Positions 14,698 to 59,244 of a DNA stretch of 64,000 nt are shown in pieces; the first letter of the stretch is position 1, and every line of letters begins with the position of its first letter. The stretch lies in assembly GCA_964016885.1 (NCBI GenBank), contig OZ024743.1:157046001-157110000 (forward strand), written 5' to 3'. Position numbers and translations under genes: made by a program. The notes under the pieces were generated by a model that saw nothing but the letters and a program-made list of their open reading frames with translations, was not told the origin of the DNA and did not search any database. This DNA comes from Eledone cirrhosa. Lineage: Eukaryota.

Positions 14698-14699
14698 AA

Positions 14700-31742: not shown

Positions 31743-31743
31743 A

Positions 31744-33905: not shown

Positions 33906-34564
33906 GCTGCATATTTGCCTCTAAACATTCCTCTGAAGGAATAATAATAACTTTAACGGATAAATTTGTTTTACTGTTGTACAGATTGGAATTTCCTCCA
34001 GCAACATCCTTAAAGACAATTATGATTCTTCTCTGAAGATTCTAAAGTGCATCTTCTTTATAATAATATATATGCATTTGCATATATATAGACCTGTTGT
34101 ATTGTTATTGGACTTTGCACGAAACACAGTGAAATAAGTAAATCTTGTTTTTAAATGTATTGCCTTCTCCTCCATATATATATATATATATATTTGCTTA
34201 TATATATATATGTGTGGGGGGGGGGGCGTGTGTGTGTGTAAAGAATAAAAGTAACCAGGATTAAATTACATTAAATTATTTGATTAATTTACGAATGTTT
34301 CTATAAATACAATGAGAAAATACATTATCTCAGTATTCATTTCTTCAGAATCTATTAAACAGCCTAAATAACGTACTTAGTTACGAACATGTTCGAACAT
34401 CTCCATTCCGAAACGAAAACAAATCTTAAAAATTCATTTTGGAAAACTTAAAAACTTAAACACGCAATTCATCTTTATTAGTCATAAGATTATAACATAC
34501 AGTGAATAAAGTTTCACTTTGCTTGAATTTTACACTCACATGCAGGTAATTTTTTTTTTTTTAG

Positions 34565-34780: not shown

Positions 34781-35582
34781 ACTTATAATATACATGCACG
34801 TATAATATACACTAAAATGATATTATATATGAATACAACTAGAACTAATAATTCTAATAATACTTATTAATTGAAGTAAAAACATTTATAAGATTAACAT
34901 TAATAGAATATATTAAGAAAATGTGTGAATGCTTAATTTAATAATAAACATATCAATCACTAGAAGTCCTTGATACTAAGACACTAATCAATCTAAACAC
35001 GTAAACCATATTAAGAGACACAAAATTATCATTTTCAGAATAAAAGGTTATAATTGTAAGGTCAGGCAAACATAATCAAATACACATATACACATATACA
35101 CACACTCCCACGTACACGTACACACACATATATATATATATATACATACACACAGATACATATATATATATGCGAAGCACACACACACACATATATATAT
35201 ATATGTGTGTCTGTGTGTGCCTATCTCCGTGTGTGCGTGTGTCTATCTCCGTGTGTGTATCTGTCTCACTGTGTGTATGTGTGTGCGCGCGTACATATAT
35301 ACATATATTTATCTATCCTATTATATTGTATGATATGGTATATAATTGTATTATTTATTATTTATTATATGTGCTACTTATAATTATATCATATTATTAC
35401 CTCATGTATATTGGGTAGATGTATTAGTATTATTATTATTATTATTGACGAAAGTGGATGTACGTTTTTTGAAGCTCCGTGAGTAAGCAATTTTTGAGGA
35501 TTAATTGTAGAGAATTGTTTATTTTTTGTACCGCTGAAGCATTATAAGACATTAATTTGTATCCTGTGAAGGAATAACTCAT

Positions 35583-35610
35583 AATATTTGGGCCTTTTGG
35601 CCCAAATATT
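35583..35610 (+). promoter_or_regulatory. Perfect 12-bp 5' UTR hairpin (present in all four copies)
   Basis: aatatttgggcc-tttt-ggcccaaatatt, 46 nt upstream of the ORF1 ATG. Confidence 0.6.
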
Positions 35611-35656
35611 TGAACTTTATTTTGAAAAAAAATAATAATTTTTTTCTCAAAAAAAC

Positions 35657-37567
35657 ATGGCGGAGCCACGCCCCCTAGAGGCGGGTCTGCTGTCGTGCAA
35701 CGGCGACTTGAGCGTTGAGAGGAGAGGTGAGGCGAGGAGCGCCACCAGCACGAATGTGAGCAGCGACAGTGCCAGCACCAACGGGCCGAGCGGCGCGGAA
35801 GGTGGTAACAGCGACAACACCAACACCAACAAGCCGAACAGCGCAGAAGGTGGTAATAGCGAGAGCACCAACAAAACGAACAGCACAGAGAGTAATAGTA
35901 GCGACAGCAGCAGCACCAACAAGGCCAACAGCACAGAAGGTAACCACGACACAGGGGAGAACAACAACAGCAATAGCAGCAGCAACACCAACAAGAACAA
36001 CAACAGTGACAACACCAACAAGAACACTTTCGCTGCTGTGGCAGCGGCTAAAAGGAGACCATGCTACAGCATCGACTTAACCAACAGAGAGGAAAAGTTG
36101 GCCCAGGCCTGGAAAATCATAAATCAAGAGCAGACCTGGGCAAACTTAACTGTCCCGGCAGAAGCCATTGAGGCAGTGGAAAAAAGAACGGTGCATTTCA
36201 GATGCATCTCAGTAGAGACAAAGAGGGCAGCGATAATCGCCCAAGCTGACATAGAAGCCGCACTGAAATACATCAGAGAGGACACAGACTTCATAGAGAG
36301 GGGCAGGCAATACGGCACCGTTTCGGTGCTGTTCAAGTCTGAAGCCCTCGCTGTGAAGCATTCAATGACCCCTTGCAAAACCAGCAAGGTCATAATGTAC
36401 CCCTCCCACATGGGAAAACGAATAGCACGTGTGCGCATTCCCAGGATTCCACCAGGACTTGATATGTGGTGGCTCCTGGGTTGCGTAATCGTGGAAGGAA
36501 CGGATACAGTCCCGGTAGAGGCAACGAGAACTGCCAGGGACGACTGGTCCGGGGTTGATCTGGAGATACTGCTCCAAATCAGACCCGAAAACGTAAAAAC
36601 AATCCCGGACCACATCCGCCTCCAAAACGGGAGGGTGTTGCATATAATGACTGAGGGCAAAAGGCCGCATTGTTTCCTTTGTGGGGAAACGACACACTTG
36701 CGAGCCTTCTGCCCTCAACTGCCGAAAAGCGCAAGGGGTCGAAAGATTCCACTGCTGGCGACGCCGGGACAAGGACCACCAGCAACACCGTCAACAATGG
36801 AACCACCAAAATTGCACACCCAGGGGGGAAACGAGGAAAGCTCTCCCATTCCCCCTCCCCTCAAAAATACACACAGGAACAAGAACATAAACACTCACTC
36901 AGACACAAACACGCTCACAGCCACAGACCCCTCATCCTCCAGCAGTGAAGATGAGGGAAAACCAAAGTCCCCCAAAATACAAAAAACAAAACACAAAAAA
37001 AAAAGAAATCCACAAAGCACAAACACCCCCACAAAAAAAAATACACACACCACCCACACAAACATTTTCCCCACAGCATCACCAACACAACCACCAAAAT
37101 CCCCCAAACGCAAACAAGCTAAACAGACACAAGAACAAATAGACACACAAACATCAGAAACTACAGACACCCCACCCACAACAAACGCAGACACAATAGA
37201 AACAACACTAACAAAGCTATCACCACCACAATCACACGAACAAATAAAACCCGAGCAACAAAACATTAAAAACTTCGTGCTTGCCAGAAGGGCCAACACG
37301 GAATTGATGGCCCATGTAGCACGAAGCACAAACATCGAAAAAGACGGGGAAACATTTGAAGCGAGCACATTTCGCGTACCAGATAATTTGCTTCTGATGC
37401 GAATGTCGCTCGCTTCATACAAAGAAATTCGAAAGAGCTTTCCTCGGGATGTGGGAACCCCGAACGTAAAACCCACGTCAAGACTATTAAAGGGGTTCCC
37501 AAAAGAAACCCCACAAACCATGGAGGTCGAACCACCCGACCTTCACAAGACCCCGGAAGGTAAGTAA
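35657..37567 (+). CDS. LINE ORF1p, nucleic-acid-binding protein with CCHC knuckle (copy 1)
   Basis: 636 aa: S/N/T-rich N-terminus, TFAAVAA motif, putative RRM-like region, CFLCGETTHLRAFC (CX2CX4HX4C), disordered T/P/K linker. Confidence 0.92.
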   Translation: MAEPRPLEAGLLSCNGDLSVERRGEARSATSTNVSSDSASTNGPSGAEGGNSDNTNTNKPNSAEGGNSESTNKTNSTESNSSDSSSTNKANSTEGNHDTGENNNSNSSSNTNKNNNSDNTNKNTFAAVAAAKRRPCYSIDLTNREEKLAQAWKIINQEQTWANLTVPAEAIEAVEKRTVHFRCISVETKRAAIIAQADIEAALKYIREDTDFIERGRQYGTVSVLFKSEALAVKHSMTPCKTSKVIMYPSHMGKRIARVRIPRIPPGLDMWWLLGCVIVEGTDTVPVEATRTARDDWSGVDLEILLQIRPENVKTIPDHIRLQNGRVLHIMTEGKRPHCFLCGETTHLRAFCPQLPKSARGRKIPLLATPGQGPPATPSTMEPPKLHTQGGNEESSPIPPPLKNTHRNKNINTHSDTNTLTATDPSSSSSEDEGKPKSPKIQKTKHKKKRNPQSTNTPTKKNTHTTHTNIFPTASPTQPPKSPKRKQAKQTQEQIDTQTSETTDTPPTTNADTIETTLTKLSPPQSHEQIKPEQQNIKNFVLARRANTELMAHVARSTNIEKDGETFEASTFRVPDNLLLMRMSLASYKEIRKSFPRDVGTPNVKPTSRLLKGFPKETPQTMEVEPPDLHKTPEGK

Positions 37568-37596
37568 ACCTTTCCTCTCCCATTCATCCTGCCAGC

Positions 37597-40500
37597 ATGG
37601 CCATAAGAGTAGGAAGTTTAAATGTTCGTGGCCTGGGGTCGCCCTGGAAGCAAGGTCACTTGCTCAACGACCTCAGGTCACTAGGAATGGATGTAATTGC
37701 CATCAGCGAGACCAGAATTTCCGACACACGCGCACTGGCGCCGATTTTCGACGATTATCAGATCTTTGCATCTGTTAGTCGGCCGGGAATGGGAGGTGGA
37801 GTGGCTGTGCTGTTTAGGAAATGTCTGGATCTCGAGGTAAGGTCAATCTTCCGGGATCCTGACGGAAAGTTGGTGGTCCTGGACGTGAGCAATAGCGAAG
37901 GTGGTGCCTTTAGACTGGTGGCCGTCTACGCCCCTACTGGGGCCGGTCGGCCGGACTTCTTTAGGCGCCTGGAAAACTTTCTGCTTACGTCTCGCCCTTT
38001 ACTGTTAATAGGGGATTGGAATGGCATCTTAGAAGCACGCTGGGATTGTGTGGGAGTATCTGATAGGAGCGGGGGGTGCAAAAGCCTCAAGTACCTGATC
38101 AGCCAGTTTCAACTGTCTGACAGGTACCGACTAGATTTCCCTAATGCGCCAGTATGGACCTGGACCAATCGCATAGGGTCATCTAGATCGTACATAGATA
38201 GGATTTTCATTAGGAAAAGAGATAGAAATAGTGTAGGATGTCCACATTTTAAAACGGTTGCCTATTCAGATCACAAGCTTGTGATCTGTATGGTCGACCT
38301 AGATAAGACACGTAGGTTAGGACCTAGCTACTGGAAGCTAAACATGTCGTTTCCGGCACGTAAAGCTTACAGGGACCGGGTCAACAACTTAGTTAAGCAA
38401 AAGTTGACAGGGGGGGTTGTCAACAACAGGTGGTGGGGGGCACTCAAAAGAGAGATTAGAGCAACCTCGATAGGATTTAGCAAAGAAGTAGCAATAGAGA
38501 AAAATAGAAAGGAGGAGGGGCTGATAGCTAAGTTAGACGAGGCTATTTGTAGTGGCATTGCAACAGACGTGCTAGCGGCGAGAATGGCACTAGACCATTT
38601 CTTCAATGCGAAACACGAAGGTTGCATTGTCAGAGCTAAGGCGCGTGCTCTGAGGAACGAGGGAACCAAAGCTGCCCGATGGGCTCGCTTTGCAGAGACG
38701 CAGCGTGGAAATAAAACCACAATTCGGTCTTTGACGGATCGAGATGGACACGAACTGAGCGATTCCAAGCAGATGTGTGAGGCCTTTCGCCAGCACTTTG
38801 CTCGATTGTTCGGGAGGATGGGTGAGTCGGAGACGGCGGCGGACTTCAGTCCCTACCTCGACGGCTTGCCACGCCTCTCGACGGCCGACGCTGAGCGCTG
38901 CGAAGAGCCGATAACATCAGTCGAAATTCAGGACGCCCTTGTCGGCTGCTCGAGTCGCAAGTCACCCGGTTTGGATGGTCTGCCCTACGAGCTTTACGTA
39001 AATATGCCAGATTTGTTCTCCGATCTTCTCGAAGCGCTCTACTGCAACTGGCAGCAGAACGGGAGCATTCCCAGTTCTGTGAGCCGTGGCGTAGTGACGC
39101 TGATAAGGAAAGACGAGAACAAGAGGGACACACTAGATAATTTCAGGCCCATAACCCTGCTCAACACAGAGTTTAAGATTTTGGCCAAGGTGTTAGCGAA
39201 AAGGTTGGCGCTTGTCGTCAAAGATTTGGTTGGGGAGGCGCAAACTTGCGCAATCCCGACCAGGTCCATACACGACAACCTCCACCTCATGCGATACATC
39301 ATAGAGAGGGTTGGGTGCAAACCTGGCTTCGGTGGGGCTCTGATCAATTTAGATCAATCGAAAGCATTCGATAGGGTCGACCATCGGTACTTGGAGGCTG
39401 TCCTCGAGGCGGCTGGCTTCGGCCCCGTCTTCAGAAGCTGGATCGCTGCAATGTACAGCGGCATCCGCTCGGTGGTCAAAGTTAATGGCCACCTCTCGGA
39501 ACCGTTTCAGATCTCTCGATCGGTCCGTCAAGGGTGCCCTCTCTCCTCACTTCTGTACGTATTGACTCTTGAGCCTCTACTGCGGAAGCTGGAGTTGTTG
39601 CAGGGCATCCCGCTCGAACCGGGACGTAGAAAGGCTGCGTCCGCTTATGCAGACGACATCACCGTGATGGTGTCGGACACCTCGGAAATCGAGGTGATCC
39701 GCACCCATTTGGAGGAATATGAAAGGTTGACGGGAGCAAAACTTAACCCGGAAAAGTCGGTGGGCTTGCAGCTCGGCACCTGGAGAGGCAAGTCCATGCC
39801 GTCCAACAGCGTCGTTGGGCGCTGGACAGACGGACCGGTAAAGTTGCTCGGGGTTTGGTTCGGACCAGACCTCCAGGTGGATAAGAATTGGGACGAGGTG
39901 ACGAGCAGGATAGCCAACCTCACCCAGAAATGGGCTGAGAGAAAGCTATCACTGAAAGGGCGGGCGGAGGTGGCGAACGCGTACATCGCGTCCGTCATCT
40001 ACTACCGCCTGACCGTCGTGCCTTGCCCCCGTCCACGCCTCGCCAATTTGGAACGGCTCCTTTTCAAATTTTTGTGGAGGGGACGGGTCCCGTTGGTGAG
40101 GCGGTCCATCTGCTGCCAGCACCCTCTTCGTGGAGGGCTGGGCATGCCGTGGCTAATGATGCGCAGACATGCGCTGAGGCTGCGACATCTCCAGATATTT
40201 TGCCTAAACGGTGAACAGGTGTGGTCGCCGTTTGTTAGACGGGCCTTTCCGCAGCTCATCTCTTTGACTGAGCTGCAGTCCTGGGTCAAGAAGAGACCGA
40301 GACTGGGCGACTGGCATCTGGAATGTTGCCAGGCGCTCACTGCACTCTGCAAGGTGGGCAATGCGGTCAGTGGAACTTCCACTCAAGATTTCTATAGAGG
40401 ATTAGTGGAGGGCAAGTGCGATGACGTACTAGGAGAGGCTCTGGGCGTCAACGAAGTAGAACTGACCAGTATGTTCCGGAGGACTTTCGAGCCGGGGACG

Positions 40501-41016
40501 ATGGATAACTTCCAGAAATCCCTCGCTTGGCAGTGCTACCGGGGGGCGCTGCCGGTTCGGGATAAACTCTACAGGCACGGAAGTGCTGTCAGACGAACCT
40601 GCCCGAGATGCGCGCAGAGCGACGAAACCGTTCTGCACGCACTCGTCCAGTGTCCGTGCATTGCTGACTTGTGGGGTTATGTCGAACAGCTATTGTCGCG
40701 TGTAGAACGGATCCGGCTATCGTCCGAGTCCATAGTGAAGATTGACCCGCCGCCTTCTTTTGGTCAGGAAGGGCAGGCAATTTTCCTCTGCCTGGTGGCA
40801 GTAGCGAAAGAGGTTGCATGGTGGACCAGGTTGAAAGGACTGAAGACAGACACTTTTCTCTTCGGCCAATCCCTCATCAACTTCTTCAAGTTTCACTTGG
40901 AAAGGAAGGTGAGGGTGGAGAGAGAAGTGCTGCCCCCCAGTACATTTACTGAAAGGTGGGTGAATGTGGCGAGAATGGCCCGCGTGAGTGGGCCTACTCT
41001 GATCATGCGCCTGTAG
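37597..41016 (+). CDS. LINE ORF2p: AP-endonuclease, reverse transcriptase, CCHC (L1/Tx1 type) (copy 1)
   Basis: 1139 aa: LNVRGL, ISETR, VYAP, GDWN, IDRIF, SDH, YWKLN; KSPGLDG, RPITLLN, DQSKAFDRV, RQGCPLS, YADD; CPRCAQSDETVLHALVQC. Confidence 0.97.
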   Translation: MAIRVGSLNVRGLGSPWKQGHLLNDLRSLGMDVIAISETRISDTRALAPIFDDYQIFASVSRPGMGGGVAVLFRKCLDLEVRSIFRDPDGKLVVLDVSNSEGGAFRLVAVYAPTGAGRPDFFRRLENFLLTSRPLLLIGDWNGILEARWDCVGVSDRSGGCKSLKYLISQFQLSDRYRLDFPNAPVWTWTNRIGSSRSYIDRIFIRKRDRNSVGCPHFKTVAYSDHKLVICMVDLDKTRRLGPSYWKLNMSFPARKAYRDRVNNLVKQKLTGGVVNNRWWGALKREIRATSIGFSKEVAIEKNRKEEGLIAKLDEAICSGIATDVLAARMALDHFFNAKHEGCIVRAKARALRNEGTKAARWARFAETQRGNKTTIRSLTDRDGHELSDSKQMCEAFRQHFARLFGRMGESETAADFSPYLDGLPRLSTADAERCEEPITSVEIQDALVGCSSRKSPGLDGLPYELYVNMPDLFSDLLEALYCNWQQNGSIPSSVSRGVVTLIRKDENKRDTLDNFRPITLLNTEFKILAKVLAKRLALVVKDLVGEAQTCAIPTRSIHDNLHLMRYIIERVGCKPGFGGALINLDQSKAFDRVDHRYLEAVLEAAGFGPVFRSWIAAMYSGIRSVVKVNGHLSEPFQISRSVRQGCPLSSLLYVLTLEPLLRKLELLQGIPLEPGRRKAASAYADDITVMVSDTSEIEVIRTHLEEYERLTGAKLNPEKSVGLQLGTWRGKSMPSNSVVGRWTDGPVKLLGVWFGPDLQVDKNWDEVTSRIANLTQKWAERKLSLKGRAEVANAYIASVIYYRLTVVPCPRPRLANLERLLFKFLWRGRVPLVRRSICCQHPLRGGLGMPWLMMRRHALRLRHLQIFCLNGEQVWSPFVRRAFPQLISLTELQSWVKKRPRLGDWHLECCQALTALCKVGNAVSGTSTQDFYRGLVEGKCDDVLGEALGVNEVELTSMFRRTFEPGTMDNFQKSLAWQCYRGALPVRDKLYRHGSAVRRTCPRCAQSDETVLHALVQCPCIADLWGYVEQLLSRVERIRLSSESIVKIDPPPSFGQEGQAIFLCLVAVAKEVAWWTRLKGLKTDTFLFGQSLINFFKFHLERKVRVEREVLPPSTFTERWVNVARMARVSGPTLIMRL

Positions 41017-41498
41017 GCTGGTGAATTCGAGAAGGAGAGGGGTGCCCTTCCCGGGTGCCCTAGGAGCGTCGGGTGGCTCAGGACTGGTGGGGTGCTTGAG
41101 TCAACCCTGGGTGGTGATCCCTCTTATTGGGGAACTTTCATTGTTGTATTTTTATTGTTATTTTGTTTTTCTTGTTATTTATACTTACTCGATCTCTATG
41201 TAAACCCCCACTGTCCCTGTCTATTGTGTTGTCCCCTATATGTCGGCCCTTGTGGCCAATAAATGAAATCATTATTATTATTATTATTGACGAAAGTGGA
41301 TGTACGTTTTTTGAAGCTCCGTGAGTAAGCAATTTTTGAGGATTAATTGTAGAGAATTGTTTATTTTTTGTACCGCTGAAGCATTATAAGACATTAATTT
41401 GTATCCTGTGAAGGAATAACTCATAATATTTGGGCCTTTTGGCCCAAATATTTGAACTTTATTTTGAAAAAAAATAATAATTTTTTTCTCAAAAAAAC

Positions 41499-43409
41499 AT
41501 GGCGGAGCCACGCCCCCTAGAGGCGGGTCTGCTGTCGTGCAACGGCGACTTGAGCGTTGAGAGGAGAGGTGAGGCGAGGAGCGCCACCAGCACGAATGTG
41601 AGCAGCGACAGTGCCAGCACCAACGGGCCGAGCGGCGCGGAAGGTGGTAACAGCGACAACACCAACACCAACAAGCCGAACAGCGCAGAAGGTGGTAATA
41701 GCGAGAGCACCAACAAAACGAACAGCACAGAGAGTAATAGTAGCGACAGCAGCAGCACCAACAAGGCCAACAGCACAGAAGGTAACCACGACACAGGGGA
41801 GAACAACAACAGCAATAGCAGCAGCAACACCAACAAGAACAACAACAGTGACAACACCAACAAGAACACTTTCGCTGCTGTGGCAGCGGCTAAAAGGAGA
41901 CCATGCTACAGCATCGACTTAACCAACAGAGAGGAAAAGTTGGCCCAGGCCTGGAAAATCATAAATCAAGAGCAGACCTGGGCAAACTTAACTGTCCCGG
42001 CAGAAGCCATTGAGGCAGTGGAAAAAAGAACGGTGCATTTCAGATGCATCTCAGTAGAGACAAAGAGGGCAGCGATAATCGCCCAAGCTGACATAGAAGC
42101 CGCACTGAAATACATCAGAGAGGACACAGACTTCATAGAGAGGGGCAGGCAATACGGCACCGTTTCGGTGCTGTTCAAGTCTGAAGCCCTCGCTGTGAAG
42201 CATTCAATGACCCCTTGCAAAACCAGCAAGGTCATAATGTACCCCTCCCACATGGGAAAACGAATAGCACGTGTGCGCATTCCCAGGATTCCACCAGGAC
42301 TTGATATGTGGTGGCTCCTGGGTTGCGTAATCGTGGAAGGAACGGATACAGTCCCGGTAGAGGCAACGAGAACTGCCAGGGACGACTGGTCCGGGGTTGA
42401 TCTGGAGATACTGCTCCAAATCAGACCCGAAAACGTAAAAACAATCCCGGACCACATCCGCCTCCAAAACGGGAGGGTGTTGCATATAATGACTGAGGGC
42501 AAAAGGCCGCATTGTTTCCTTTGTGGGGAAACGACACACTTGCGAGCCTTCTGCCCTCAACTGCCGAAAAGCGCAAGGGGTCGAAAGATTCCACTGCTGG
42601 CGACGCCGGGACAAGGACCACCAGCAACACCGTCAACAATGGAACCACCAAAATTGCACACCCAGGGGGGAAACGAGGAAAGCTCTCCCATTCCCCCTCC
42701 CCTCAAAAATACACACACGAACAAGAACATAAACACTCACTCAGACACAAACACGCTCACAGCCACAGACCCCTCATCCTCCAGCAGTGAAGATGAGGGA
42801 AAACCAAAGTCCCCCAAAATACAAAAAACAAAACACAAAAAAAAAAGAAATCCACAAAGCACAAACACCCCCACAAAAAAAAATACACACACCACCCACA
42901 CAAACATTTTCCCCACAGCATCACCAACACAACCACCAAAATCCCCCAAACGCAAACAAGCTAAACAGACACAAGAACAAATAGACACACAAACATCAGA
43001 AACTACAGACACCCCACCCACAACAAACGCAGACACAATAGAAACAACACTAACAAAGCTATCACCACCACAATCACACGAACAAATAAAACCCGAGCAA
43101 CAAAACATTAAAAACTTCGTGCTTGCCAGAAGGGCCAACACGGAATTGATGGCCCATGTAGCACGAAGCACAAACATCGAAAAAGACGGGGAAACATTTG
43201 AAGCGAGCACATTTCGCGTACCAGATAATTTGCTTCTGATGCGAATGTCGCTCGCTTCATACAAAGAAATTCGAAAGAGCTTTCCTCGGGATGTGGGAAC
43301 CCCGAACGTAAAACCCACGTCAAGACTATTAAAGGGGTTCCCAAAAGAAACCCCACAAACCATGGAGGTCGAACCACCCGACCTTCACAAGACCCCGGAA
43401 GGTAAGTAA
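41499..43409 (+). CDS. LINE ORF1p (copy 2)
   Basis: 636 aa; differs from copy 1 by R>T in KNTH(R/T)NK. Confidence 0.92.
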   Translation: MAEPRPLEAGLLSCNGDLSVERRGEARSATSTNVSSDSASTNGPSGAEGGNSDNTNTNKPNSAEGGNSESTNKTNSTESNSSDSSSTNKANSTEGNHDTGENNNSNSSSNTNKNNNSDNTNKNTFAAVAAAKRRPCYSIDLTNREEKLAQAWKIINQEQTWANLTVPAEAIEAVEKRTVHFRCISVETKRAAIIAQADIEAALKYIREDTDFIERGRQYGTVSVLFKSEALAVKHSMTPCKTSKVIMYPSHMGKRIARVRIPRIPPGLDMWWLLGCVIVEGTDTVPVEATRTARDDWSGVDLEILLQIRPENVKTIPDHIRLQNGRVLHIMTEGKRPHCFLCGETTHLRAFCPQLPKSARGRKIPLLATPGQGPPATPSTMEPPKLHTQGGNEESSPIPPPLKNTHTNKNINTHSDTNTLTATDPSSSSSEDEGKPKSPKIQKTKHKKKRNPQSTNTPTKKNTHTTHTNIFPTASPTQPPKSPKRKQAKQTQEQIDTQTSETTDTPPTTNADTIETTLTKLSPPQSHEQIKPEQQNIKNFVLARRANTELMAHVARSTNIEKDGETFEASTFRVPDNLLLMRMSLASYKEIRKSFPRDVGTPNVKPTSRLLKGFPKETPQTMEVEPPDLHKTPEGK

Positions 43410-43438
43410 ACCTTTCCTCTCCCATTCATCCTGCCAGC

Positions 43439-46858: not shown

Positions 46859-47339
46859 GCTGGTGAATTCGAGAAGGAGAGGGGTGCCCTTCCCGGGTGC
46901 CCTAGGAGCGTCGGGTGGCTCAGGACTGGTGGGGTGCTTGAGTCAACCCTGGGTGGTGATCCCTCTTATTGGGGAACTTTCATTGTTGTATTTTTATTGT
47001 TATTTTGTTTTTTTGTTATTTATACTTACTCGATCTCTATGTAAACCCCCACTGTCCCTGTCTATTGTGTTGTCCCCTATATGTCGGCCCTTGTGGCCAA
47101 TAAATGAAATCATTATTATTATTATTATTGACGAAAGTGGATGTACGTTTTTTGAAGCTCCGTGAGTAAGCAATTTTTGAGGATTAATTGTAGAGAATTG
47201 TTTATTTTTTGTACCGCTGAAGCATTATAAGACATTAATTTGTATCCTGTGAAGGAATAACTCATAATATTTGGGCCTTTTGGCCCAAATATTTGAACTT
47301 TATTTTGAAAAAAAATAATAATTTTTTTCTCAAAAAAAC

Positions 47340-49250: not shown

Positions 49251-49279
49251 ACCTTTCCTCTCCCATTCATCCTGCCAGC

Positions 49280-52200
49280 ATGGCCATAAGAGTAGGAAGT
49301 TTAAATGTTCGTGGCCTGGGGTCGCCCTGGAAGCAAGGTCACTTGCTCAACGACCTCAGGTCACTAGGAATGGATGTAATTGCCATCAGCGAGACCAGAA
49401 TTTCCGACACACGCGCACTGGCGCCGATTTTCGACGATTATCAGATCTTTGCATCTGTTAGTCGGCCGGGAATGGGAGGTGGAGTGGCTGTGCTGTTTAG
49501 GAAATGTCTGGATCTCGAGGTAAGGTCAATCTTCCGGGATCCTGACGGAAAGTTGGTGGTCCTGGACGTGAGCAATAGCGAAGGTGGTGCCTTTAGACTG
49601 GTGGCCGTCTACGCCCCTACTGGGGCCGGTCGGCCGGACTTCTTTAGGCGCCTGGAAAACTTTCTGCTTACGTCTCGCCCTTTACTGTTAATAGGGGATT
49701 GGAATGGCATCTTAGAAGCACGCTGGGATTGTGTGGGAGTATCTGATAGGAGCGGGGGGTGCAAAAGCCTCAAGTACCTGATCAGCCAGTTTCAACTGTC
49801 TGACAGGTACCGACTAGATTTCCCTAATGCGCCAGTATGGACCTGGACCAATCGCATAGGGTCATCTAGATCGTACATAGATAGGATTTTCATTAGGAAA
49901 AGAGATAGAAATAGTGTAGGATGTCCACATTTTAAAACGGTTGCCTATTCAGATCACAAGCTTGTGATCTGTATGGTCGACCTAGATAAGACACGTAGGT
50001 TAGGACCTAGCTACTGGAAGCTAAACATGTCGTTTCCGGCACGTAAAGCTTACAGGGACCGGGTCAACAACTTAGTTAAGCAAAAGTTGACAGGGGGGGT
50101 TGTCAACAACAGGTGGTGGGGGGCACTCAAAAGAGAGATTAGAGCAACCTCGATAGGATTTAGCAAAGAAGTAGCAATAGAGAAAAATAGAAAGGAGGAG
50201 GGGCTGATAGCTAAGTTAGACGAGGCTATTTGTAGTGGCATTGCAACAGACGTGCTAGCGGCGAGAATGGCACTAGACCATTTCTTCAATGCGAAACACG
50301 AAGGTTGCATTGTCAGAGCTAAGGCGCGTGCTCTGAGGAACGAGGGAACCAAAGCTGCCCGATGGGCTCGCTTTGCAGAGACGCAGCGTGGAAATAAAAC
50401 CACAATTCGGTCTTTGACGGATCGAGATGGACACGAACTGAGCGATTCCAAGCAGATGTGTGAGGCCTTTCGCCAGCACTTTGCTCGATTGTTCGGGAGG
50501 ATGGGTGAGTCGGAGACGGCGGCGGACTTCAGTCCCTACCTCGACGGCTTGCCACGCCTCTCGACGGCCGACGCTGAGCGCTGCGAAGAGCCGATAACAT
50601 CAGCCGAAATTCAGGACGCCCTTGTCGGCTGCTCGAGTCGCAAGTCACCCGGTTTGGATGGTCTGCCCTACGAGCTTTACGTAAATATGCCAGACTTGTT
50701 CTCCGATCTCCTCGAAGCGCTCTACTGCAACTGGCAGCAGAACGGGAGCATTCCCAGTTCTGTGAGCCGTGGCGTAGTGACGCTGATAAGGAAAGACGAG
50801 AACAAGAGGGACACACTAGATAATTTCAGGCCCATAACCCTGCTCAACACAGAGTTTAAGATTTTGGCCAAGGTGTTAGCGAAAAGGTTGGCGCTTGTCG
50901 TCAAAGATTTGGTTGGGGAGGCGCAAACTTGCGCAATCCCGACCAGGTCCATACACGACAACCTCCACCTCATGCGATACATCATAGAGAGGGTTGGGTG
51001 CAAACCTGGCTTCGGTGGGGCTCTGATCAATTTAGATCAATCGAAAGCATTCGATAGGGTCGACCATCGGTACTTGGAGGCTGTCCTCGAGGCGGCTGGC
51101 TTCGGCCCCGTCTTCAGAAGCTGGATCGCTGCAATGTACAGCGGCATCCGCTCGGTGGTCAAAGTTAATGGCCACCTCTCGGAACCGTTTCAGATCTCTC
51201 GATCGGTCCGTCAAGGGTGCCCTCTCTCCTCACTTCTGTACGTATTGACTCTTGAGCCTCTACTGCGGAAGCTGGAGTTGTTGCAGGGCATCCCGCTCGA
51301 ACCGGGACGTAGAAAGGCTGCGTCCGCTTATGCGGACGACATCACCGTGATGGTGTCGGACACCTCGGAAATCGAGGTGATCCGCACCCATTTGGAGGAA
51401 TATGAAAGGTTGACGGGAGCAAAACTTAACCCGGAAAAGTCGGTGGGCTTGCAGCTCGGCACTTGGAGAGGCAAGTCCATGCCGTCCAACAGCGTCGTTG
51501 GGCGCTGGACAGACGGACCGGTAAAGTTGCTCGGGGTTTGGTTCGGACCAGACCTCCAGGTGGATAAGAATTGGGACGAGGTGACGAGCAGGATAGCCAA
51601 CCTCACCCAGAAATGGGCTGAGAGAAAGCTATCACTGAAAGGGCGGGCGGAGGTGGCGAACGCGTACATCGCGTCCGTCATCTACTACCGCCTGACCGTC
51701 GTGCCTTGCCCCCGTCCACGCCTCGCCAATTTGGAACGGCTCCTTTTCAAATTTTTGTGGAGGGGACGGGTCCCGTTGGTGAGGCGGTCCATCTGCTGCC
51801 AGCACCCTCTTCGTGGAGGGCTGGGCATGCCGTGGCTAATGATGCGCAGACATGCGCTGAGGCTGCGACATCTCCAGATATTTTGCCTAAACGGTGAACA
51901 GGTGTGGTCGCCGTTTGTTAGACGGGCCTTTCCGCAGCTCATCTCTTTGACTGAGCTGCAGTCCTGGGTCAAGAAGAGACCGAGACTGGGCGACTGGCAT
52001 CTGGAATGTTGCCAGGCGCTCACTGCACTCTGCAAGGTGGGCAATGCGGTCAGTGGAACTTCCACTCAAGATTTCTATAGAGGATTAGTGGAGGGCAAGT
52101 GCGATGACGTACTAGGAGAGGCTCTGGGCGTCAACGAAGTAGAACTGACCAGTATGTTCCGGAGGACTTTCGAGCCGGGGACGATGGATAACTTCCAGAA

Positions 52201-52699
52201 ATCCCTCGCTTGGCAGTGCTACCGGGGGGCGCTGCCGGTTCGGGATAAACTCTACAGGCACGGAAGTGCTGTCAGACGAACCTGCCCGAGATGCGCGCAG
52301 AGCGACGAAACCGTTCTGCACGCACTCGTCCAGTGTCCGTGCATTGCTGACTTGTGGGGTTATGTCGAACAGCTATTGTCGCGTGTAGAACGGATCCGGC
52401 TATCGTCCGAGTCCATAGTGAAGATTGACCCGCCGCCTTCTTTTGGTCAGGAAGGGCAGGCAATTTTCCTCTGCCTGGTGGCAGTAGCGAAAGAGGTTGC
52501 ATGGTGGACCAGGTTGAAAGGACTGAAGACAGACACTTTTCTCTTCGGCCAATCCCTCATCAACTTCTTCAAGTTTCACTTGGAAAGGAAGGTGAGGGTG
52601 GAGAGAGAAGTGCTGCCCCCCAGTACATTTACTGAAAGGTGGGTGAATGTGGCGAGAATGGCCCGCGTGAGTGGGCCTACTCTGATCATGCGCCTGTAG
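49280..52699 (+). CDS. LINE ORF2p APE-RT-CCHC (copy 3)
   Basis: 1139 aa intact; TSAEI variant. Confidence 0.97.
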   Translation: MAIRVGSLNVRGLGSPWKQGHLLNDLRSLGMDVIAISETRISDTRALAPIFDDYQIFASVSRPGMGGGVAVLFRKCLDLEVRSIFRDPDGKLVVLDVSNSEGGAFRLVAVYAPTGAGRPDFFRRLENFLLTSRPLLLIGDWNGILEARWDCVGVSDRSGGCKSLKYLISQFQLSDRYRLDFPNAPVWTWTNRIGSSRSYIDRIFIRKRDRNSVGCPHFKTVAYSDHKLVICMVDLDKTRRLGPSYWKLNMSFPARKAYRDRVNNLVKQKLTGGVVNNRWWGALKREIRATSIGFSKEVAIEKNRKEEGLIAKLDEAICSGIATDVLAARMALDHFFNAKHEGCIVRAKARALRNEGTKAARWARFAETQRGNKTTIRSLTDRDGHELSDSKQMCEAFRQHFARLFGRMGESETAADFSPYLDGLPRLSTADAERCEEPITSAEIQDALVGCSSRKSPGLDGLPYELYVNMPDLFSDLLEALYCNWQQNGSIPSSVSRGVVTLIRKDENKRDTLDNFRPITLLNTEFKILAKVLAKRLALVVKDLVGEAQTCAIPTRSIHDNLHLMRYIIERVGCKPGFGGALINLDQSKAFDRVDHRYLEAVLEAAGFGPVFRSWIAAMYSGIRSVVKVNGHLSEPFQISRSVRQGCPLSSLLYVLTLEPLLRKLELLQGIPLEPGRRKAASAYADDITVMVSDTSEIEVIRTHLEEYERLTGAKLNPEKSVGLQLGTWRGKSMPSNSVVGRWTDGPVKLLGVWFGPDLQVDKNWDEVTSRIANLTQKWAERKLSLKGRAEVANAYIASVIYYRLTVVPCPRPRLANLERLLFKFLWRGRVPLVRRSICCQHPLRGGLGMPWLMMRRHALRLRHLQIFCLNGEQVWSPFVRRAFPQLISLTELQSWVKKRPRLGDWHLECCQALTALCKVGNAVSGTSTQDFYRGLVEGKCDDVLGEALGVNEVELTSMFRRTFEPGTMDNFQKSLAWQCYRGALPVRDKLYRHGSAVRRTCPRCAQSDETVLHALVQCPCIADLWGYVEQLLSRVERIRLSSESIVKIDPPPSFGQEGQAIFLCLVAVAKEVAWWTRLKGLKTDTFLFGQSLINFFKFHLERKVRVEREVLPPSTFTERWVNVARMARVSGPTLIMRL

Positions 52700-53179
52700 G
52701 CTGGTGAATTCGAGAAGGAGAGGGGTGCCCTTCCCGGGTGCCCTAGGAGCGTCGGGTGGCTCAGGACTGGTGGGGTGCTTGAGTCAACCCTGGGTGGTGA
52801 TCCCTCTTATTGGGGAACTTTCATTGTTGTATTTTTATTGTTATTTTGTTTTTTTGTTATTTATACTTACTCGATCTCTATGTAAACCCCCACTGTCCCT
52901 GTCTATTGTGTTGTCCCCTATATGTCGGCCCTTGTGGCCAATAAATGAAATCATTATTATTATTATTGACGAAAGTGGATGTACGTTTTTTGAAGCTCCG
53001 TGAGTAAGCAATTTTTTGAGGATTAATTGTAGAGAATTGTTTATTTTTTGTACCGCTGAAGCATTATAAGACATTAATTTGTATCCTGTGAAGGAATAAC
53101 TCATAATATTTGGGCCTTTTGGCCCAAATATTTGAACTTTATTTTGAAAAAAAAATAATAATTTTTTTCTCAAAAAAAC

Positions 53180-55089
53180 ATGGCGGAGCCACGCCCCCTA
53201 GAGGCGGGTCTGCTGTCGTGCAACGGCGACTTGAGCGTTGAGAGGAGAGGTGAGGCGAGGAGCGCCACCAGCACGAATGTGAGCAGCGACAGTGCCAGCA
53301 CCAACGGGCCGAGCGGCGCGGAAGGTGGTAACAGCGACAACACCAACACCAACAAGCCGAACAGCGCAGAAGGTGGTAATAGCGAGAGCACCAACAAAAC
53401 GAACAGCACAGAGAGTAATAGTAGCGACAGCAACAGCACCAACAAGGCCAACAGCACAGAGGGTAACCACGACACAGGGGAGAACAACAACAGCAATAGC
53501 AGCAGCAACACCAACAAGAACAACAACAGTGACAACACCAACAAGAACACCTTCGCTGCTGTGGCAGCGGCTAAAAGGAGACCATGCTACAGCATCGACT
53601 TAACCAACAGAGAGGAAAAGTTGGCCCAGGCCTGGAAAATCATAAATCAAGAGCAGACCTGGGCAAACTTAACTGTCCCGGCAGAAGCCATTGAGGCAGT
53701 GGAAAAAAGAACGGTGCATTTCAGATGCATCTCAGTAGAGACAAAGAGGGCAGCGATAATCGCCCAAGCTGATATAGAAGCCGCACTGAAATACATCAGA
53801 GAGGACACAGACTTCATAGAGAGGGGCAGGCAATACGGCACCGTTTCGGTGCTGTTCAAGTCTGAAGCCCTCGCTGTGAAGCATTCAATGACCCCTTGCA
53901 AAACCAGCAAGGTTATAATGTACCCCTCCCACATGGGAAAACGAATAGCACGTGTGCGCATTCCCAGGATTCCACCAGGACTTGATATGTGGTGGCTCCT
54001 GGGTTGCGTAATCGTGGAAGGAACGGATACAGTCCCGGTAGAGGCAACGAGAACTGCCAGGGACGACTGGTCCGGGGTTGATCTGGAGATACTGCTCCAA
54101 ATCAGACCCGAAAACGTAAAAGCAATCCCGGACCACATCCGCCTCCAAAACGGGAGGGTGTTGCATATAATGACTGAGGGCAAAAGGCCGCATTGTTTCC
54201 TTTGTGGGGAAACGACACACTTGCGAGCCTTCTGCCCTCAACTGCCGAAAAGCGCAAGGGGTCGAAAGATTCCACTGCTGGCGACGCCGGGACAAGGACC
54301 ACCAGCAACACCGTCAACAATGGAACCACCAACATTGCACACCCAGGGGGGAAACGAGGAAAGCTCTCCCATTCCCCCTCCCCCCCAAAATACACACACG
54401 AACAAGAACATAAACACTCACTCAGACACAAACACGCTCACAGCCACAGACCCCTCATCCTCCAGCAGTGAAGATGAGGGAAAACCAAAGTCCCCCAAAA
54501 TACAAAAAACAAAACACAAAAAAAAAGAAATCCACAAAGCACAAACACCCCCACAAAAAAAAATACACACACCACCCACACAAACATTTTCCCCACAGCA
54601 TCACCAACACAACCACCAAAATCCCCCAAACGCAAACAAGCTAAACAGACACAAGAACAAATAGACACACAAACATCAGAAACTACAGACACCCCACCCA
54701 CAACAAACGCAGACACAATAGAAACAACACTAACAAAGCTATCACCACCACAATCACACGAACAAATAAAACCCGAGCAACAAAACATTAAAAACTTCGT
54801 GCTTGCCAGAAGGGCCAACACGGAATTGATGGCCCATGTAGCACGAAGCACAAACATCGAAAAAGACGGGGAAACATTTGAAGCGAGCACATTTCGCGTA
54901 CCAGATAATTTGCTTCTGATGCGAATGTCGCTCGCTTCATACAAAGAAATTCGAAAGAGCTTTCCTCGGGATGTGGGAACCCCGAACGTAAAACCCACGT
55001 CAAGACTATTAAAGGGGTTCCCAAAAGAAACCCCACAAACCATGGCGGTCGAACCACCCGACCTTCACAAGACCCCGGAAGGTAAGTAA
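53180..55089 (+). pseudogene. LINE ORF1 (copy 4) with -1 frameshift in an A-run
   Basis: A9 at 54518-54526 versus A10 in the other copies splits the ORF into 53180-54664 and 54799-55089. May be a sequencing error. Confidence 0.7.
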
Positions 55090-55118
55090 ACCTTTCCTCT
55101 CCCATTCATCCTGCCAGC

Positions 55119-58100
55119 ATGGCCATAAGAGTAGGAAGTTTAAATGTTCGTGGCCTGGGGTCGCCCTGGAAGCAAGGTCACTTGCTCAACGACCTCAGGT
55201 CACTAGGAATGGATGTAATTGCCATCAGCGAGACCAGAATTTCCGACACACGCGCACTGGCGCCGATTTTCGACGATTATCAGATCTTTGCATCTGTTAG
55301 TCGGCCGGGAATGGGAGGTGGAGTGGCTGTGCTGTTTAGGAAATGTCTGGATCTCGAGGTAAGGTCAATCTTCCGGGATCCTGACGGAAAGTTGGTGGTC
55401 CTGGACGTGAGCAATAGCGAAGGTGGTGCCTTTAGACTGGTGGCCGTCTACGCCCCTACTGGGGCCGGTCGGCCGGACTTCTTTAGGCGCCTGGAAAACT
55501 TTCTGCTTACGTCTCGCCCTTTACTGTTAATAGGGGATTGGAATGGCATCTTAGAAGCACGCTGGGATTGTGTGGGAGTATCTGATAGGAGCGGGGGGTG
55601 CAACAGCCTCAAGTACCTGATCAGCCAGTTTCAACTGTCTGACAGGTACCGACTAGATTTCCCTAATGCGCCAGTATGGACCTGGACCAATCGCATAGGG
55701 TCATCTAGATCGTACATAGATAGGATTTTCATTAGGAAAAGAGATAGAAATAGTGTAGGATGTCCACATTTTAAAACGGTTGCCTATTCAGATCACAAGC
55801 TTGTGATCTGTATGGTCGACCTAGATAAGACACGTAGGTTAGGACCTAGCTACTGGAAGCTAAACATGTCGTTTCCGGCACGTAAAGCTTACAGGGACCG
55901 GGTCAACAACTTAGTTAAGCAAAAGTTGACAGGGGGGGTTGTCAACAACAGGTGGTGGGGGGCACTCAAAAGAGAGATTAGAGCAACCTCGATAGGATTT
56001 AGCAAAGAAGTAGCAATAGAGAAAAATAGAAAGGAGGAGGGGCTGATAGCTAAGTTAGACGAGGCTATTTGTAGTGGCATTGCAACAGACGTGCTAGCGG
56101 CGAGAATGGCACTAGACCATTTCTTCAATGCGAAACACGAAGGTTGCATTGTCAGAGCTAAGGCGCGTGCTCTGAGGAACGAGGGAACCAAAGCTGCCCG
56201 ATGGGCTCGCTTTGCAGAGACGCAGCGTGGAAATAAAACCACAATTCGGTCTTTGACGGATCGAGATGGACACGAACTGAGCGATTCCAAGCAGATGTGT
56301 GAGGCCTTTCGCCAGCACTTTGCTCGATTGTTCGGGAGGATGGGTGAGTCGGAGACGGCGGCGGACTTCAGTCCCTACCTCGACGGCTTGCCACGCCTCT
56401 CGACGGCCGACGCTGAGCGCTGCGAAGAGCCGATAACATCAGTCGAAATTCAGGACGCCCTTGTCGGCTGCTCGAGTCGCAAGTCACCCGGTTTGGATGG
56501 TCTGCCCTACGAGCTTTACGTAAATATGCCAGATTTGTTCTCCGATCTTCTCGAAGCGCTCTACTGCAACTGGCAGCAGAACGGGAGCATTCCCAGTTCT
56601 GTGAGCCGTGGCGTAGTGACGCTGATAAGGAAAGACGAGAACAAGAGGGACACACTAGATAATTTCAGGCCCATAACCCTGCTCAACACAGAGTTTAAGA
56701 TTTTGGCCAAGGTGTTAGCGAAAAGGTTGGCGCTTGTCGTCAAAGATTTGGTTGGGGAGGCGCAAACTTGCGCAATCCCGACCAGGTCCATACACGACAA
56801 CCTCCACCTCATGCGATACATCATAGAGAGGGTTGGGTGCAAACCTGGCTTCGGTGGGGCTCTGATCAATTTAGATCAATCGAAAGCATTCGATAGGGTC
56901 GACCATCGGTACTTGGAGGCTGTCCTCGAGGCGGCTGGCTTCGGCCCCGTCTTCAGAAGCTGGATCGCTGCAATGTACAGCGGCATCTGCTCGGTGGTCA
57001 AAGTTAATGGCCACCTCTCGGAACCGTTTCAGATCTCTCGATCGGTCCGTCAAGGGTGCCCTCTCTCCTCACTTCTGTTCGTATTGACTCTTGAGCCTCT
57101 ACTGCGGAAGCTGGAGTTGTTGCAGGGCATCCCGCTCGAACCGGGACGTAGAAAGGCTGCGTCCGCTTATGCGGACGACATCACCGTGATGGTGTCGGAC
57201 ACCTCGGAAATCGAGGTGATCGGCACCCATTTGGAGGAATATGAAAGGTTGACGGGAGCAAAACTTAACCCGGAAAAGTCGGTGGGCTTGCAGCTCGGCA
57301 CCTGGAGAGGCAAGTCCATGCCGTCCAACAGCGTCGTTGGGCGCTGGACAGACGGACCGGTAAAGTTGCTCGGGGTTTGGTTCGGACCAGACCTCCAGGT
57401 GGATAAGAATTGGGACGAGGTGACGAGCAGGATAGCCAACCTCACCCAGAAATGGGCTGAGAGAAAGCTATCACTGAAAGGGCGGGCGGAGGTGGCGAAC
57501 GCGTACATCGCGTCCGTCATCTACTACCGCCTGACCGTCGTGCCTTGCCCCCGTCCACGCCTCGCCAATTTGGAACGGCTCCTTTTCAAATTTTTGTGGA
57601 GGGGACGGGTCCCGTTGGTGAGGCGGTCCATCTGCTGCCAGCACCCTCTTCGTGGAGGGCTGGGCATGCCGTGGCTAATGATGCGCAGACATGCGCTGAG
57701 GCTGCGACATCTCCAGATATTTTGCCTAAACGGTGAACAGGTGTGGTCGCCGTTTGTTAGACGGGCCTTTCCGCAGCTCATCTCTTTGACTGAGCTGCAG
57801 TCCTGGGTCAAGAAGAGACCGAGACTGGGCGACTGGCATCTGGAATGTTGCCAGGCGCTCACTGCACTCTGCAAGGTGGGCAATGCGGTCAGTGGAACTT
57901 CCACTCAAGATTTCTATAGAGGATTAGTGGAGGGCAAGTGCGATGACGTACTAGGAGAGGCTCTGGGCGTCAACGAAGTAGAACTGACCAGTATGTTCCG
58001 GAGGACTTTCGAGCCGGGGACGATGGATAACTTCCAGAAATCCCTCGCTTGGCAGTGCTACCGGGGGGCGCTGCCGGTTCGGGATAAACTCTACAGGCAC

Positions 58101-58538
58101 GGAAGTGCTGTCAGACGAACCTGCCCGAGATGCGCGCAGAGCGACGAAACCGTTCTGCACGCACTCGTCCAGTGTCCGTGCATTGCTGACTTGTGGGGTT
58201 ATGTCGAACAGCTATTGTCGCGTGTAGAACGGATCCAGCTATCGTCCGAGTCCATAGTGAAGATTGACCCGCCGCCTTCTTTTGGTCAGGAAGGGCAGGC
58301 AATTTTCCTCTGCCTGGTGGCAGTAGCGAAAGAGGTTGCATGGTGGACCAGGTTGAAAGGACTGAAGACAGACACTTTTCTCTTCGGCCAATCCCTCATC
58401 AACTTCTTCAAGTTTCACTTGGAAAGGAAGGTGAGGGTGGAGAGAGAAGTGCTGCCCCCCAGTACATTTACTGAAAGGTGGGTGAATGTGGCGAGAATGG
58501 CCCGCGTGAGTGGGCCTACTCTGATCATGCGCCTGTAG
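55119..58538 (+). CDS. LINE ORF2p APE-RT-CCHC (copy 4)
   Basis: 1139 aa intact; private variants GCNSL, GICSV, LLFVL, VIGTH, RIQLS. Confidence 0.97.
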   Translation: MAIRVGSLNVRGLGSPWKQGHLLNDLRSLGMDVIAISETRISDTRALAPIFDDYQIFASVSRPGMGGGVAVLFRKCLDLEVRSIFRDPDGKLVVLDVSNSEGGAFRLVAVYAPTGAGRPDFFRRLENFLLTSRPLLLIGDWNGILEARWDCVGVSDRSGGCNSLKYLISQFQLSDRYRLDFPNAPVWTWTNRIGSSRSYIDRIFIRKRDRNSVGCPHFKTVAYSDHKLVICMVDLDKTRRLGPSYWKLNMSFPARKAYRDRVNNLVKQKLTGGVVNNRWWGALKREIRATSIGFSKEVAIEKNRKEEGLIAKLDEAICSGIATDVLAARMALDHFFNAKHEGCIVRAKARALRNEGTKAARWARFAETQRGNKTTIRSLTDRDGHELSDSKQMCEAFRQHFARLFGRMGESETAADFSPYLDGLPRLSTADAERCEEPITSVEIQDALVGCSSRKSPGLDGLPYELYVNMPDLFSDLLEALYCNWQQNGSIPSSVSRGVVTLIRKDENKRDTLDNFRPITLLNTEFKILAKVLAKRLALVVKDLVGEAQTCAIPTRSIHDNLHLMRYIIERVGCKPGFGGALINLDQSKAFDRVDHRYLEAVLEAAGFGPVFRSWIAAMYSGICSVVKVNGHLSEPFQISRSVRQGCPLSSLLFVLTLEPLLRKLELLQGIPLEPGRRKAASAYADDITVMVSDTSEIEVIGTHLEEYERLTGAKLNPEKSVGLQLGTWRGKSMPSNSVVGRWTDGPVKLLGVWFGPDLQVDKNWDEVTSRIANLTQKWAERKLSLKGRAEVANAYIASVIYYRLTVVPCPRPRLANLERLLFKFLWRGRVPLVRRSICCQHPLRGGLGMPWLMMRRHALRLRHLQIFCLNGEQVWSPFVRRAFPQLISLTELQSWVKKRPRLGDWHLECCQALTALCKVGNAVSGTSTQDFYRGLVEGKCDDVLGEALGVNEVELTSMFRRTFEPGTMDNFQKSLAWQCYRGALPVRDKLYRHGSAVRRTCPRCAQSDETVLHALVQCPCIADLWGYVEQLLSRVERIQLSSESIVKIDPPPSFGQEGQAIFLCLVAVAKEVAWWTRLKGLKTDTFLFGQSLINFFKFHLERKVRVEREVLPPSTFTERWVNVARMARVSGPTLIMRL

Positions 58539-59244
58539 GCTGGTGAATTCGAGAAGGAGAGGGGTGCCCTTCCCGGGTGCCCTAGGAGCGTCGGGTGGCT
58601 CAGGACTGGTGGGGTGCTTGAGTCAACCCTGGGTGGTGATCCCTCTTATTGGGGAACTTTCATTGTTGTATTTTTATTGTTATTTTGTTTTTTGTTATTT
58701 ATACTTACTCGATCTCTATGTAAACCCCCACTGTCCCTGTCTATTGTGTTGTCCCCTATATGTCGGCCCTTGTGGCCAATAAATGAAATCATTATTATTA
58801 TTATTATTTTCATTCCTATCATGCTTATTTTTGTATTCAAACTCTTAATAAGGTTTAATTTGTGCAGTTGAAGATGGATGTGTGTATTGTTGTATGTGTA
58901 TGTGTGTGTACGTGTGCGCACATATATACATATGCATATTGTATCTTTTTATTTTTATTGTAATTTTAATGTTGGTAACGGTATATTATATTATATTATA
59001 TTATATTACATTGTATTATATATAATTCCTGCTCTATATAACCACCTTTGCTTAGCTGTAGGTTTTTTGCTTTGGACTATATTTGTAATATGGTTCTTAA
59101 TGTTATATACATCCTTAGTAATTTTTATTATATATTTTTATTATTTTTATTATATATTTTTGCAATATTTTAGTGTATGTGCACTCCATATTCTTCGGAG
59201 CTTCGGGCCTGTATCTGCCGATATTACTTCTTGTTGTTTTAATT

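Follow-up and report, generated by a model that had tools for sequence, protein, structure and literature searches.

We analysed a window of 64,000 nucleotides from the octopod Eledone cirrhosa (assembly GCA_964016885.1, contig OZ024743.1, positions 157,046,001 to 157,110,000 of the forward strand; the positions below are those of the window), which contains a head-to-tail array of long interspersed nuclear elements (LINEs) joined by the simple repeat (ATT)n. The array occupies 35429..58808 and consists of four units of about 5.82 kb, 99.6-99.98% identical to each other, with spacers made of ATT repeats alone (Table 1). Unit 1 is 5824 bp long and units 2-4 are 5823 bp each; all four start with GACGAAAGTGG and end with AATAAATGAAATC, and the five array junctions are, from left to right, (ATT)6, 6, 6, 5 and 6. 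An earlier reading of this DNA, made from the sequence only, had described a four-unit head-to-tail array with ATT-only joints, and its coordinates, shared ends and junction lengths were all reproduced in our analysis. The units have an AATAAA close to the end of the 3' untranslated region (3' UTR), yet no copy carries a poly(A), and none of the five array junctions contains one. Each junction has 15-18 bp of ATT, as would be expected of a target duplication that has been kept, and the border between tail and duplication is hidden in such a pure repeat. As to a known 5' ribozyme behind the uniform 5' starts, no Rfam family reaches its gathering score in the window. A telomeric array of the HeT-A/TART type is ruled out by ordinary flanks of at least 5 kb on both sides within the window.

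Table 1. Units and junctions of the LINE array, and related older copies and short elements in the window
Feature	Position	Strand
(ATT)6 left boundary, ATT AGT just upstream; putative target or target-site duplication	35429..35446	+
LINE unit 1, full length: 210-nt 5' UTR, open reading frames ORF1 and ORF2, 3' UTR with AATAAA, without poly(A)	35447..41270	+
Unit 1 ORF1, 636 aa	35657..37567	+
Unit 1 ORF2, 1139 aa	37597..41016	+
(ATT)6 junction 1-2	41271..41288	+
LINE unit 2; ORF1 41499-43409, ORF2 43439-46858	41289..47111	+
(ATT)6 junction 2-3	47112..47129	+
LINE unit 3; ORF1 47340-49250, ORF2 49280-52699; 1 substitution relative to unit 2	47130..52952	+
(ATT)5 junction 3-4	52953..52967	+
LINE unit 4, different sub-lineage; ORF1 53180-54664 frameshifted, ORF2 55119-58538 open	52968..58790	+
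(ATT)6 right boundary	58791..58808	+
Older degenerate chain of related LINEs, one orientation	205..8000	+
Older copy B, (TA)n 5' flank, degenerate 3' end; counter-example to ATT targeting	14698..19150	+
Minus-strand chain: (TTA)3, 22 unaligned nt, copy C, ATT tail, SINE 3' fragment, (ATT)5, full SINE	31450..33950	-
SINE copies	9279-9467, 25998-26251, 31450-31724, 59419-59608, 60400-60579, 61594-61776	

ORF2 is open in all four units (1139 aa) and ORF1 in three of the four (636 aa), and the ORF1 of unit 4 is frameshifted (494 aa). The earlier description of the units as coding-intact stands as far as reading frames go; unit 4 in addition alters Y654, a residue invariant in alignment A1. ORF2 contains an apurinic/apyrimidinic-type (APE) endonuclease at aa 7-226, a reverse transcriptase (RT) at 509-753 with YADD at 684, and a zf-RVT domain at 974-1026, the families PF03372, PF00078 and PF13966 all scoring above the Pfam cut-off, and the same scan found no RNase H family. 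The residues N9, E38, Y111, D140, N142, D201, D225 and H226 as well as the YADD are present and unchanged among the units; their roles we assume to be those of the L1 counterparts. ORF1 has an Asn/Ser-rich N-terminus and a single CX2CX4HX4C knuckle at aa 339, with no Pfam family at E<=0.1. In each unit this N-terminus is made of a 48-bp tandem repeat and AAC runs (35761-36026 in unit 1; Asn/Ser/Thr-rich), and the older copies have similar tracts there, but non-alignable ones. Four of the 11 ORF2 differences among the units are synonymous against an expected fraction of 0.24-0.31, which gives no signal of selection.

Among solved structures (PDB) the best relative of ORF2 is human L1 ORF2p (E 7e-57, aa 4-853), and R2 is matched in the RT only (E 4e-22), in a comparison that is without the CR1, RTE and I clades. 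The nearest named protein relative comes from Argonauta hians (67%), which points to an octopod host. In a tree of 114 RTs the element joins the Argonauta protein and P0001 (SH-aLRT 99), as sister to 47 unnamed proteins (100); this tree holds no named Tx1 reference (Tx1L, Keno, Kibi, Koshi), and no protein named Tx1 was among the homologues displayed by two homologue searches and a cluster look-up. Judged from its sequence, the element is a non-LTR retrotransposon of the L1 group (APE, RT and C-terminal CCHC; nearer to L1 than to R2), and it probably belongs to the Tx1 clade, the label given to it in the earlier reading, for which we take an ORF1 with a CCHC zinc knuckle, not of the mammalian-L1 type, to be a feature; the knuckle at aa 339 is of this kind. 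Membership in Kibi or Koshi is ruled out by the junctions, all five of which are (ATT)n and not (TC)n or (TTC)n, and membership in Dong or R4 by the two ORFs with an N-terminal APE in place of a single ORF with a C-terminal restriction-like endonuclease.

Because a pure ATT junction cannot separate a tail from a target, we examined the older copies of the family in the same window. The chain near the left end, made of relatives that are 78-95% alike, begins with (ATT)5, copy e0 (220-1445, internally deleted), a degenerate ATT tail, about 68 bp of other sequence and (ATT)11. Next come copy A, a broken copy of full length (about 1560-7468), then (ATT)4 and a 5'-truncated fragment (7483-7800), which begins 2 nt past its neighbour's (ATT)4. 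Beyond (ATT)7, the chain closes with the 5' UTR of one more copy (7822-about 8000). Tandem duplication cannot have built this chain, since the 3' regions compared are just 78-90% alike and one member is 5'-truncated. Judging from the similarity of their 5' UTRs and from ATT-to-ATG distances of 210, 228 and 221 nt, e0, A and the copy at 7822 would represent full-length starts. Of the eight 5' ends that the family has in the window, six are no more than 25 nt away from at least three ATT repeats, against 213 of 51484 background positions (0.4%); counted by locus, ATT adjoins the 5' end in three of five cases, and four of the six ATT-adjoining ends are in one chain. In a small sample, the repeat stops exactly after ATT at five of six 5' junctions (219, 1559, 7480, 7821, 33940, 35446), and such a stop would fit a top-strand nick at the T-A step. 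Two details of the chain are recorded on the side. The segment of about 68 bp (1457-1524), which lies between two ATT runs, has no match elsewhere in the window and may have come from the 3' end of a different element with an ATT tail. On both sides of the truncated fragment stands (ATT)4 + CTTT (7469-7486 and 7810-7825), a possible duplication into the first bases of the next unit as for insertion into an existing junction, with the C as the one letter unexplained by homology.

A short interspersed nuclear element (SINE) of about 190 bp provides a second view of the target. Its end resembles the last 30 bases of the LINE (shuffle p 0.003-0.026 in all four tested, ATT excluded), and its target duplications are exact over 15-18 bp in four of eight copies, where they start with ATTAT or TTATT and reach beyond it into unique sequence; three of the other copies have 10-11 bp with one mismatch, and one has pure ATT. 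The duplications average 14.1 for a copy's own flanks versus 8.6 for 56 cross pairs, and the three top cross values (20, 30, 30) are read as adjacent SINE copies sharing sequence. For the SINE, the target clearly includes ATT, and its duplications of 15-18 bp are as long as (ATT)5-6. From the shared 3' end and the shared target it is likely that the LINE mobilises the SINE. SINE copies are themselves found in stacked positions: the pair near 26000-26250 is divided by its duplication, and copy C (33918-31776, minus strand) is followed via ATT runs by a SINE fragment and then by the full SINE, which has a 16-bp target duplication. The SINE core presumably recalls the Deu/Nin domain.

The four units differ at 27 alignment columns. 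Units 2 and 3 are separated by 1 substitution, units 1 and 3 by 6, units 1 and 2 by 7, and unit 4 from the others by 17-20. Four public runs were aligned to 52850-59325, namely X1, which may be the source sample, X4, X5 and X24, the last being an independent sample; read depth in these runs is no copy number, and contigs lose rare variants. In X1, the depth from ORF1 into ORF2 is 1840-2355 for pieces with 0-2 differences, and two sites in the 3' UTR reach 2337-2539 in total, with 11-20 for two diverged pieces, which suggests a young family whose copies number on the order of 100 and mostly have their full length. A young and high-copy family is thereby supported. Both alleles are common in X1 at two clean ORF1 sites, the letter of units 1-3 accounting for 1200 of 2163 at 53551 and for 1362 of 2193 at 53773. 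Nineteen columns set unit 4 alone apart, and 11 of them are displayed in X1: the unit 4 letter reaches at least 38% at seven, 10% at one and about zero at two, the remaining one being a homopolymer (ORF2 depths in X1 also take in older subfamilies). Unit 4 and units 1-3 are different widespread sub-lineages. Because both alleles are widespread in X1, separate insertions of unit 4 and of units 1-3 are favoured, and at least two independent insertions in the four-unit array are likely. The X4 contigs match the letters of units 1-3 at 53461, 53551, 53773, 54122, 54333 and 55046, but have A at 54821; the uneven depth of X4 is not taken as expression.

We propose that an ATT-targeted LINE stacks via its target duplication, that at least two insertions formed this array, and that local unequal exchange or gene conversion followed, a reading to which we give a probability of roughly two in three. 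It is reconstructed from the anatomy, the junctions, the flank bias, the SINE duplications and the allele sharing. The LINE would insert at sense-strand sites starting with ATTAT, mostly within (ATT)n tracts, where its APE domain would nick the AAT strand and the freed end would prime reverse transcription at the 3' end of the element, with no poly(A) ever being copied. A second nick 15-18 nt away would duplicate (ATT)5-6 and leave a fresh target on both sides of each insertion, and later copies could then land head to tail. Unit 4 on the one hand and units 1-3 on the other would derive from at least two independent insertions, and unequal exchange or gene conversion would then have added or homogenised units, as may be seen in the pair of units 2 and 3 and in the shared rare alleles. 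The overall route would be double insertion of the R1 type, then exchange. Specificity could come from the endonuclease or from base pairing between the nicked strand and an RNA that ends in (AUU)n; the missing poly(A) agrees with the pairing route.

Several observations tell against this proposal. Two of the eight 5' ends are without ATT, namely copy B, whose 5' flank is (TA)n, and a tail of 35 bp near 27936; copy C is 5'-truncated and separated from (TTA)3 by 22 unaligned nt; and the flank sample is one window and clustered. The partner of the SINE could be another LINE. At 54821 all four units have C, whereas the contigs of X1, X4 and X5 have only A; and at 56549 units 1 and 4 have in common a rare T (162 of 116836 depth in X1). 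Finally, 3' ends continue in ATT into varied flanks in 13 contigs of X4 and 5137 reads of X24, and since they lead into varied sequence, many relatives have no full-length unit downstream. The sequence-only reading had proposed an active (ATT)n-specific Tx1 whose insertion recreates its own target on both sides and lets an interstitial locus grow into a LINE macrosatellite. The regenerated ATT target is upheld by the older heterologous chain, the six of eight 5' ends and the SINE duplications; strict specificity is not upheld, given the (TA)n flank of copy B and a SINE that needs only ATTAT, nor is a view of arrays as the rule, as 3' ends in two other samples (X4, X24) mostly lead into varied flanks. 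In favour of the proposal, 74 reads of X24 link a 3' end via an ATT run to a 5'-truncated copy beginning at 58078.

The sharing of the 54821 C and the 56549 T is unpredicted by independent insertions, except with later exchange or with a source animal that is different. A third site, 54122, has A in units 1-3, a letter with 36 of 1832 depth in X1, yet it is the letter of the X4 contig. The patterns at 54821, 56549 and 54122 fit no single tree and suggest conversion or unequal exchange in the array, or a source animal unlike X1. These sites bring in the alternative that the array grew locally out of a single ATT-targeted insertion, through unequal exchange or break repair at the (ATT)6 duplications, and that the differences come from later ectopic gene conversion, which we regard as quite unlikely. 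It would account for the C found in four of four units and in the contigs of none of three runs, for the scarce 54122 A of units 1-3 and the single base between units 2 and 3, for identical 5' starts without any extra cause, and for the clustering of 12 of the 19 unit-4-only differences within the initial 1.55 kb (p 0.0009). Against it, the alternative alleles that unit 4 has in ORF1 as well as in ORF2 (53551, 53773, 56988, 57222) are common ones, which would demand conversion over most of the unit; the letters of units 1-3 at 54122 and 54333 are those of X4 contigs, so their haplotype exists elsewhere; and an 18-bp repeat is in general a poor substrate for recombination. The shared rare alleles and the near-identical units 2 and 3 point to local exchange added to the stacking by insertion. 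Of the earlier view that the units are separate insertions, at least two (unit 4 and units 1-3) are retained, but not all four, in view of the one base between units 2 and 3 and the shared 54821 C.

Template jumping is a property of the R2 RT, and a comparable jump between (AUU)n-ended RNAs, or a read-through transcript of a tandem donor, could have produced the array as a concatemer in one event, with the inner ATT being RNA tails. This predicts the same structure, is compatible with a shared 54821 C if the RNAs came from one cell, and agrees with junctions free of poly(A), but the frameshift of unit 4 and its rare private letters (53461, 55046) suggest a different age or source, and the older heterologous chain and the SINE duplications with unique sequence are left unexplained; we hold it to be very improbable. 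It is hardly credible that ATT is an element-encoded tail only, inserted near-randomly in AT-rich DNA with tandems by chance nesting in a repeat-dense region: the 3' ends of X4 and X24 that pass through ATT into varied flanks, the X24 depth of 9242 at 52946 versus 33 at 53012 (a reduced-representation library, mostly older subfamilies), copy B without a 5' ATT, and the ATT tails of other LINEs such as RandI (PMC3747384) speak for it, against which stand the ATT on the 5' side of six of eight ends over a background of 0.4% and SINE duplications that start at ATTAT on both sides. Equally hard to credit is an assembly artefact of the whole array, although a spurious third or fourth unit is plausible as a minority chance: among the alignments listed for the public runs there is no read or contig spanning the array junctions, nor any empty site of the array, and units 2 and 3 differ by one base, but three distinct haplotypes have alleles present in public runs, one junction differs in length, and an older ATT-joined chain lies in the same window.

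Both the target and the stacking have precedents. Dong belongs to the R4 clade, has a restriction-like endonuclease (RLE) and carries TAA on its sense strand, whereas the element here has an APE and reads ATT, not TAA. In the passages available from the papers cited here and below, (TAA)n is the target of Dong, DongAg and DongBg in silkworm, mosquito and snail (PMC3812793), which is the same double-stranded microsatellite, with a mollusc as one host; R4 is of the RLE type (PMC4640811), and Dong-R4 was recently active in Octopus vulgaris (PMC13282606). Among Tx1 families, Kibi is reported on (TC)n, Koshi on (TTC)n and crocodilian Tx1 on (TTCC)n and (TTTC)n (PMC4494074), and microsatellite-targeting LINEs of the Tx1 clade are also treated in PMC3812793. 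Like the element here, these families have two ORFs with APE, RT and CCHC, the same simple repeat on both sides and no poly(A); unlike them, it has (ATT)n as target and an octopod as host, and the likeness is one of anatomy, not of a tree. A family is called target-specific in PMC4494074 when the target occurs in more than 20% of the flanks of genomic copies; here, in one window only, ATT is found at six of eight 5' ends and three of five loci.

For the stacking, R1 of Drosophila inserts doubly into its target duplication and expands later by unequal exchange (PMC5932611). The likeness extends to head-to-tail APE-type LINEs, spacers from target duplications, 5'-truncated units and later expansion; in contrast, R1 arrays have 28S rDNA as target and reach 0.5-1.3 Mb, and the present array is 23 kb on a dispersed microsatellite. 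Units of independent origin, as in R1-type arrays, are seen in the alleles of unit 4 and units 1-3 that are both common in X1, and in the heterologous and truncated members of the older chain. In crocodilians, tandem copies of SINEU-3 sandwich a 16-bp target duplication, read as sequential insertion (PMC4494074), so that SINEU-3 and Tx1-Mar resemble our case both in tandem copies around a duplication and in a SINE sharing the target of a Tx1 LINE, with the difference that their target is a Mariner element and the head of the SINE is snRNA-derived. Tandem insertions of Utopia (Utopia-1_NVit) are known as well (PMC4640811). The stacking mechanism (R1, SINEU-3, Utopia) and the TAA/ATT target (Dong) are thus already known. 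In Octopus vulgaris there are 80 L1-Tx1 families, 13 of them recently active with 421 near-full-length insertions (PMC13282606); the ATT LINE family may be among them, a likeness by description only, and the text and supplement rows found of that paper make no mention of a target preference or of tandem arrays for L1-Tx1. Neither "Tx1" nor "tandem" occurs in PMC9115989, and a term search of PMC3747384 and PMC4758252 adds little. No ATT-specific or array-forming L1/Tx1 element of cephalopods appears in the literature found, nor does any ATT-specific Tx1; this counts only weakly as absence, Repbase and Dfam being outside its scope, and the target figures of PMC4494074 may list one. The surprise once attached to the array is not upheld, since stacking by re-insertion into a target duplication (PMC5932611, PMC4494074) and the TAA/ATT target (PMC3812793) are published. 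The apparent novelties are an APE-type L1/Tx1 element that has (ATT)n as its target, a SINE that is probably its partner, and a tidy series of units that are intact.

If the proposal is true, the few repeats used by microsatellite-directed APE elements gain one more member, and two unrelated endonuclease types use one repeat in the same host group; the known stacking mechanism is unchanged by it. The recognition of simple repeats by APE-type LINEs is not well understood (PMC3812793), and intact young copies make it testable, as a choice of the endonuclease versus RNA-DNA pairing of the (AUU)n end. With young, old and SINE chains in one window, the locus is a compact case of transposons becoming tandem repeats outside Drosophila. 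It is rather unlikely, as a wider claim, that an octopod L1/Tx1 lineage converged with Dong on TAA/ATT, though reading the other strand, that its copies are seldom truncated, that it mobilises an abundant SINE, and that it restores its own target efficiently enough for a major fraction of the copies to lie in head-to-tail macrosatellites with intact coding regions, of which the X5 species might have thousands of units.

Some further observations concern relatives and surroundings. In X5, a differently labelled organism, the summed contig depth is about 100,000-270,000 from the 5' UTR to the 3' UTR, whereas single pieces that are diverged have 22-34 and the right-flank bin 58898-59113 has none, and a sister subfamily may be greatly amplified in that organism. 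Metagenome relatives at 55 loci are mostly 23-35% identical, few reaching 40-51% in the best segment; (ATT)n of at least 12 nt was found at none of 43 loci examined and several end in poly(A), which is uninformative on the ATT family. A joint from 52967 to 59133 is supported by 102 reads, but its short side has just 21 letters, which are AT-rich, and it is too weak to make a Penelope tail the target. In the high-copy right flank, a Type I hammerhead-like motif at 59242-59286 (plus strand) scores 28 bits (E 0.00015) with Rfam RF00163, below the gathering score of 34; we take it to resemble a terminus of a Penelope element, and the array may sit inside the AT-rich tail of a Penelope-like element.

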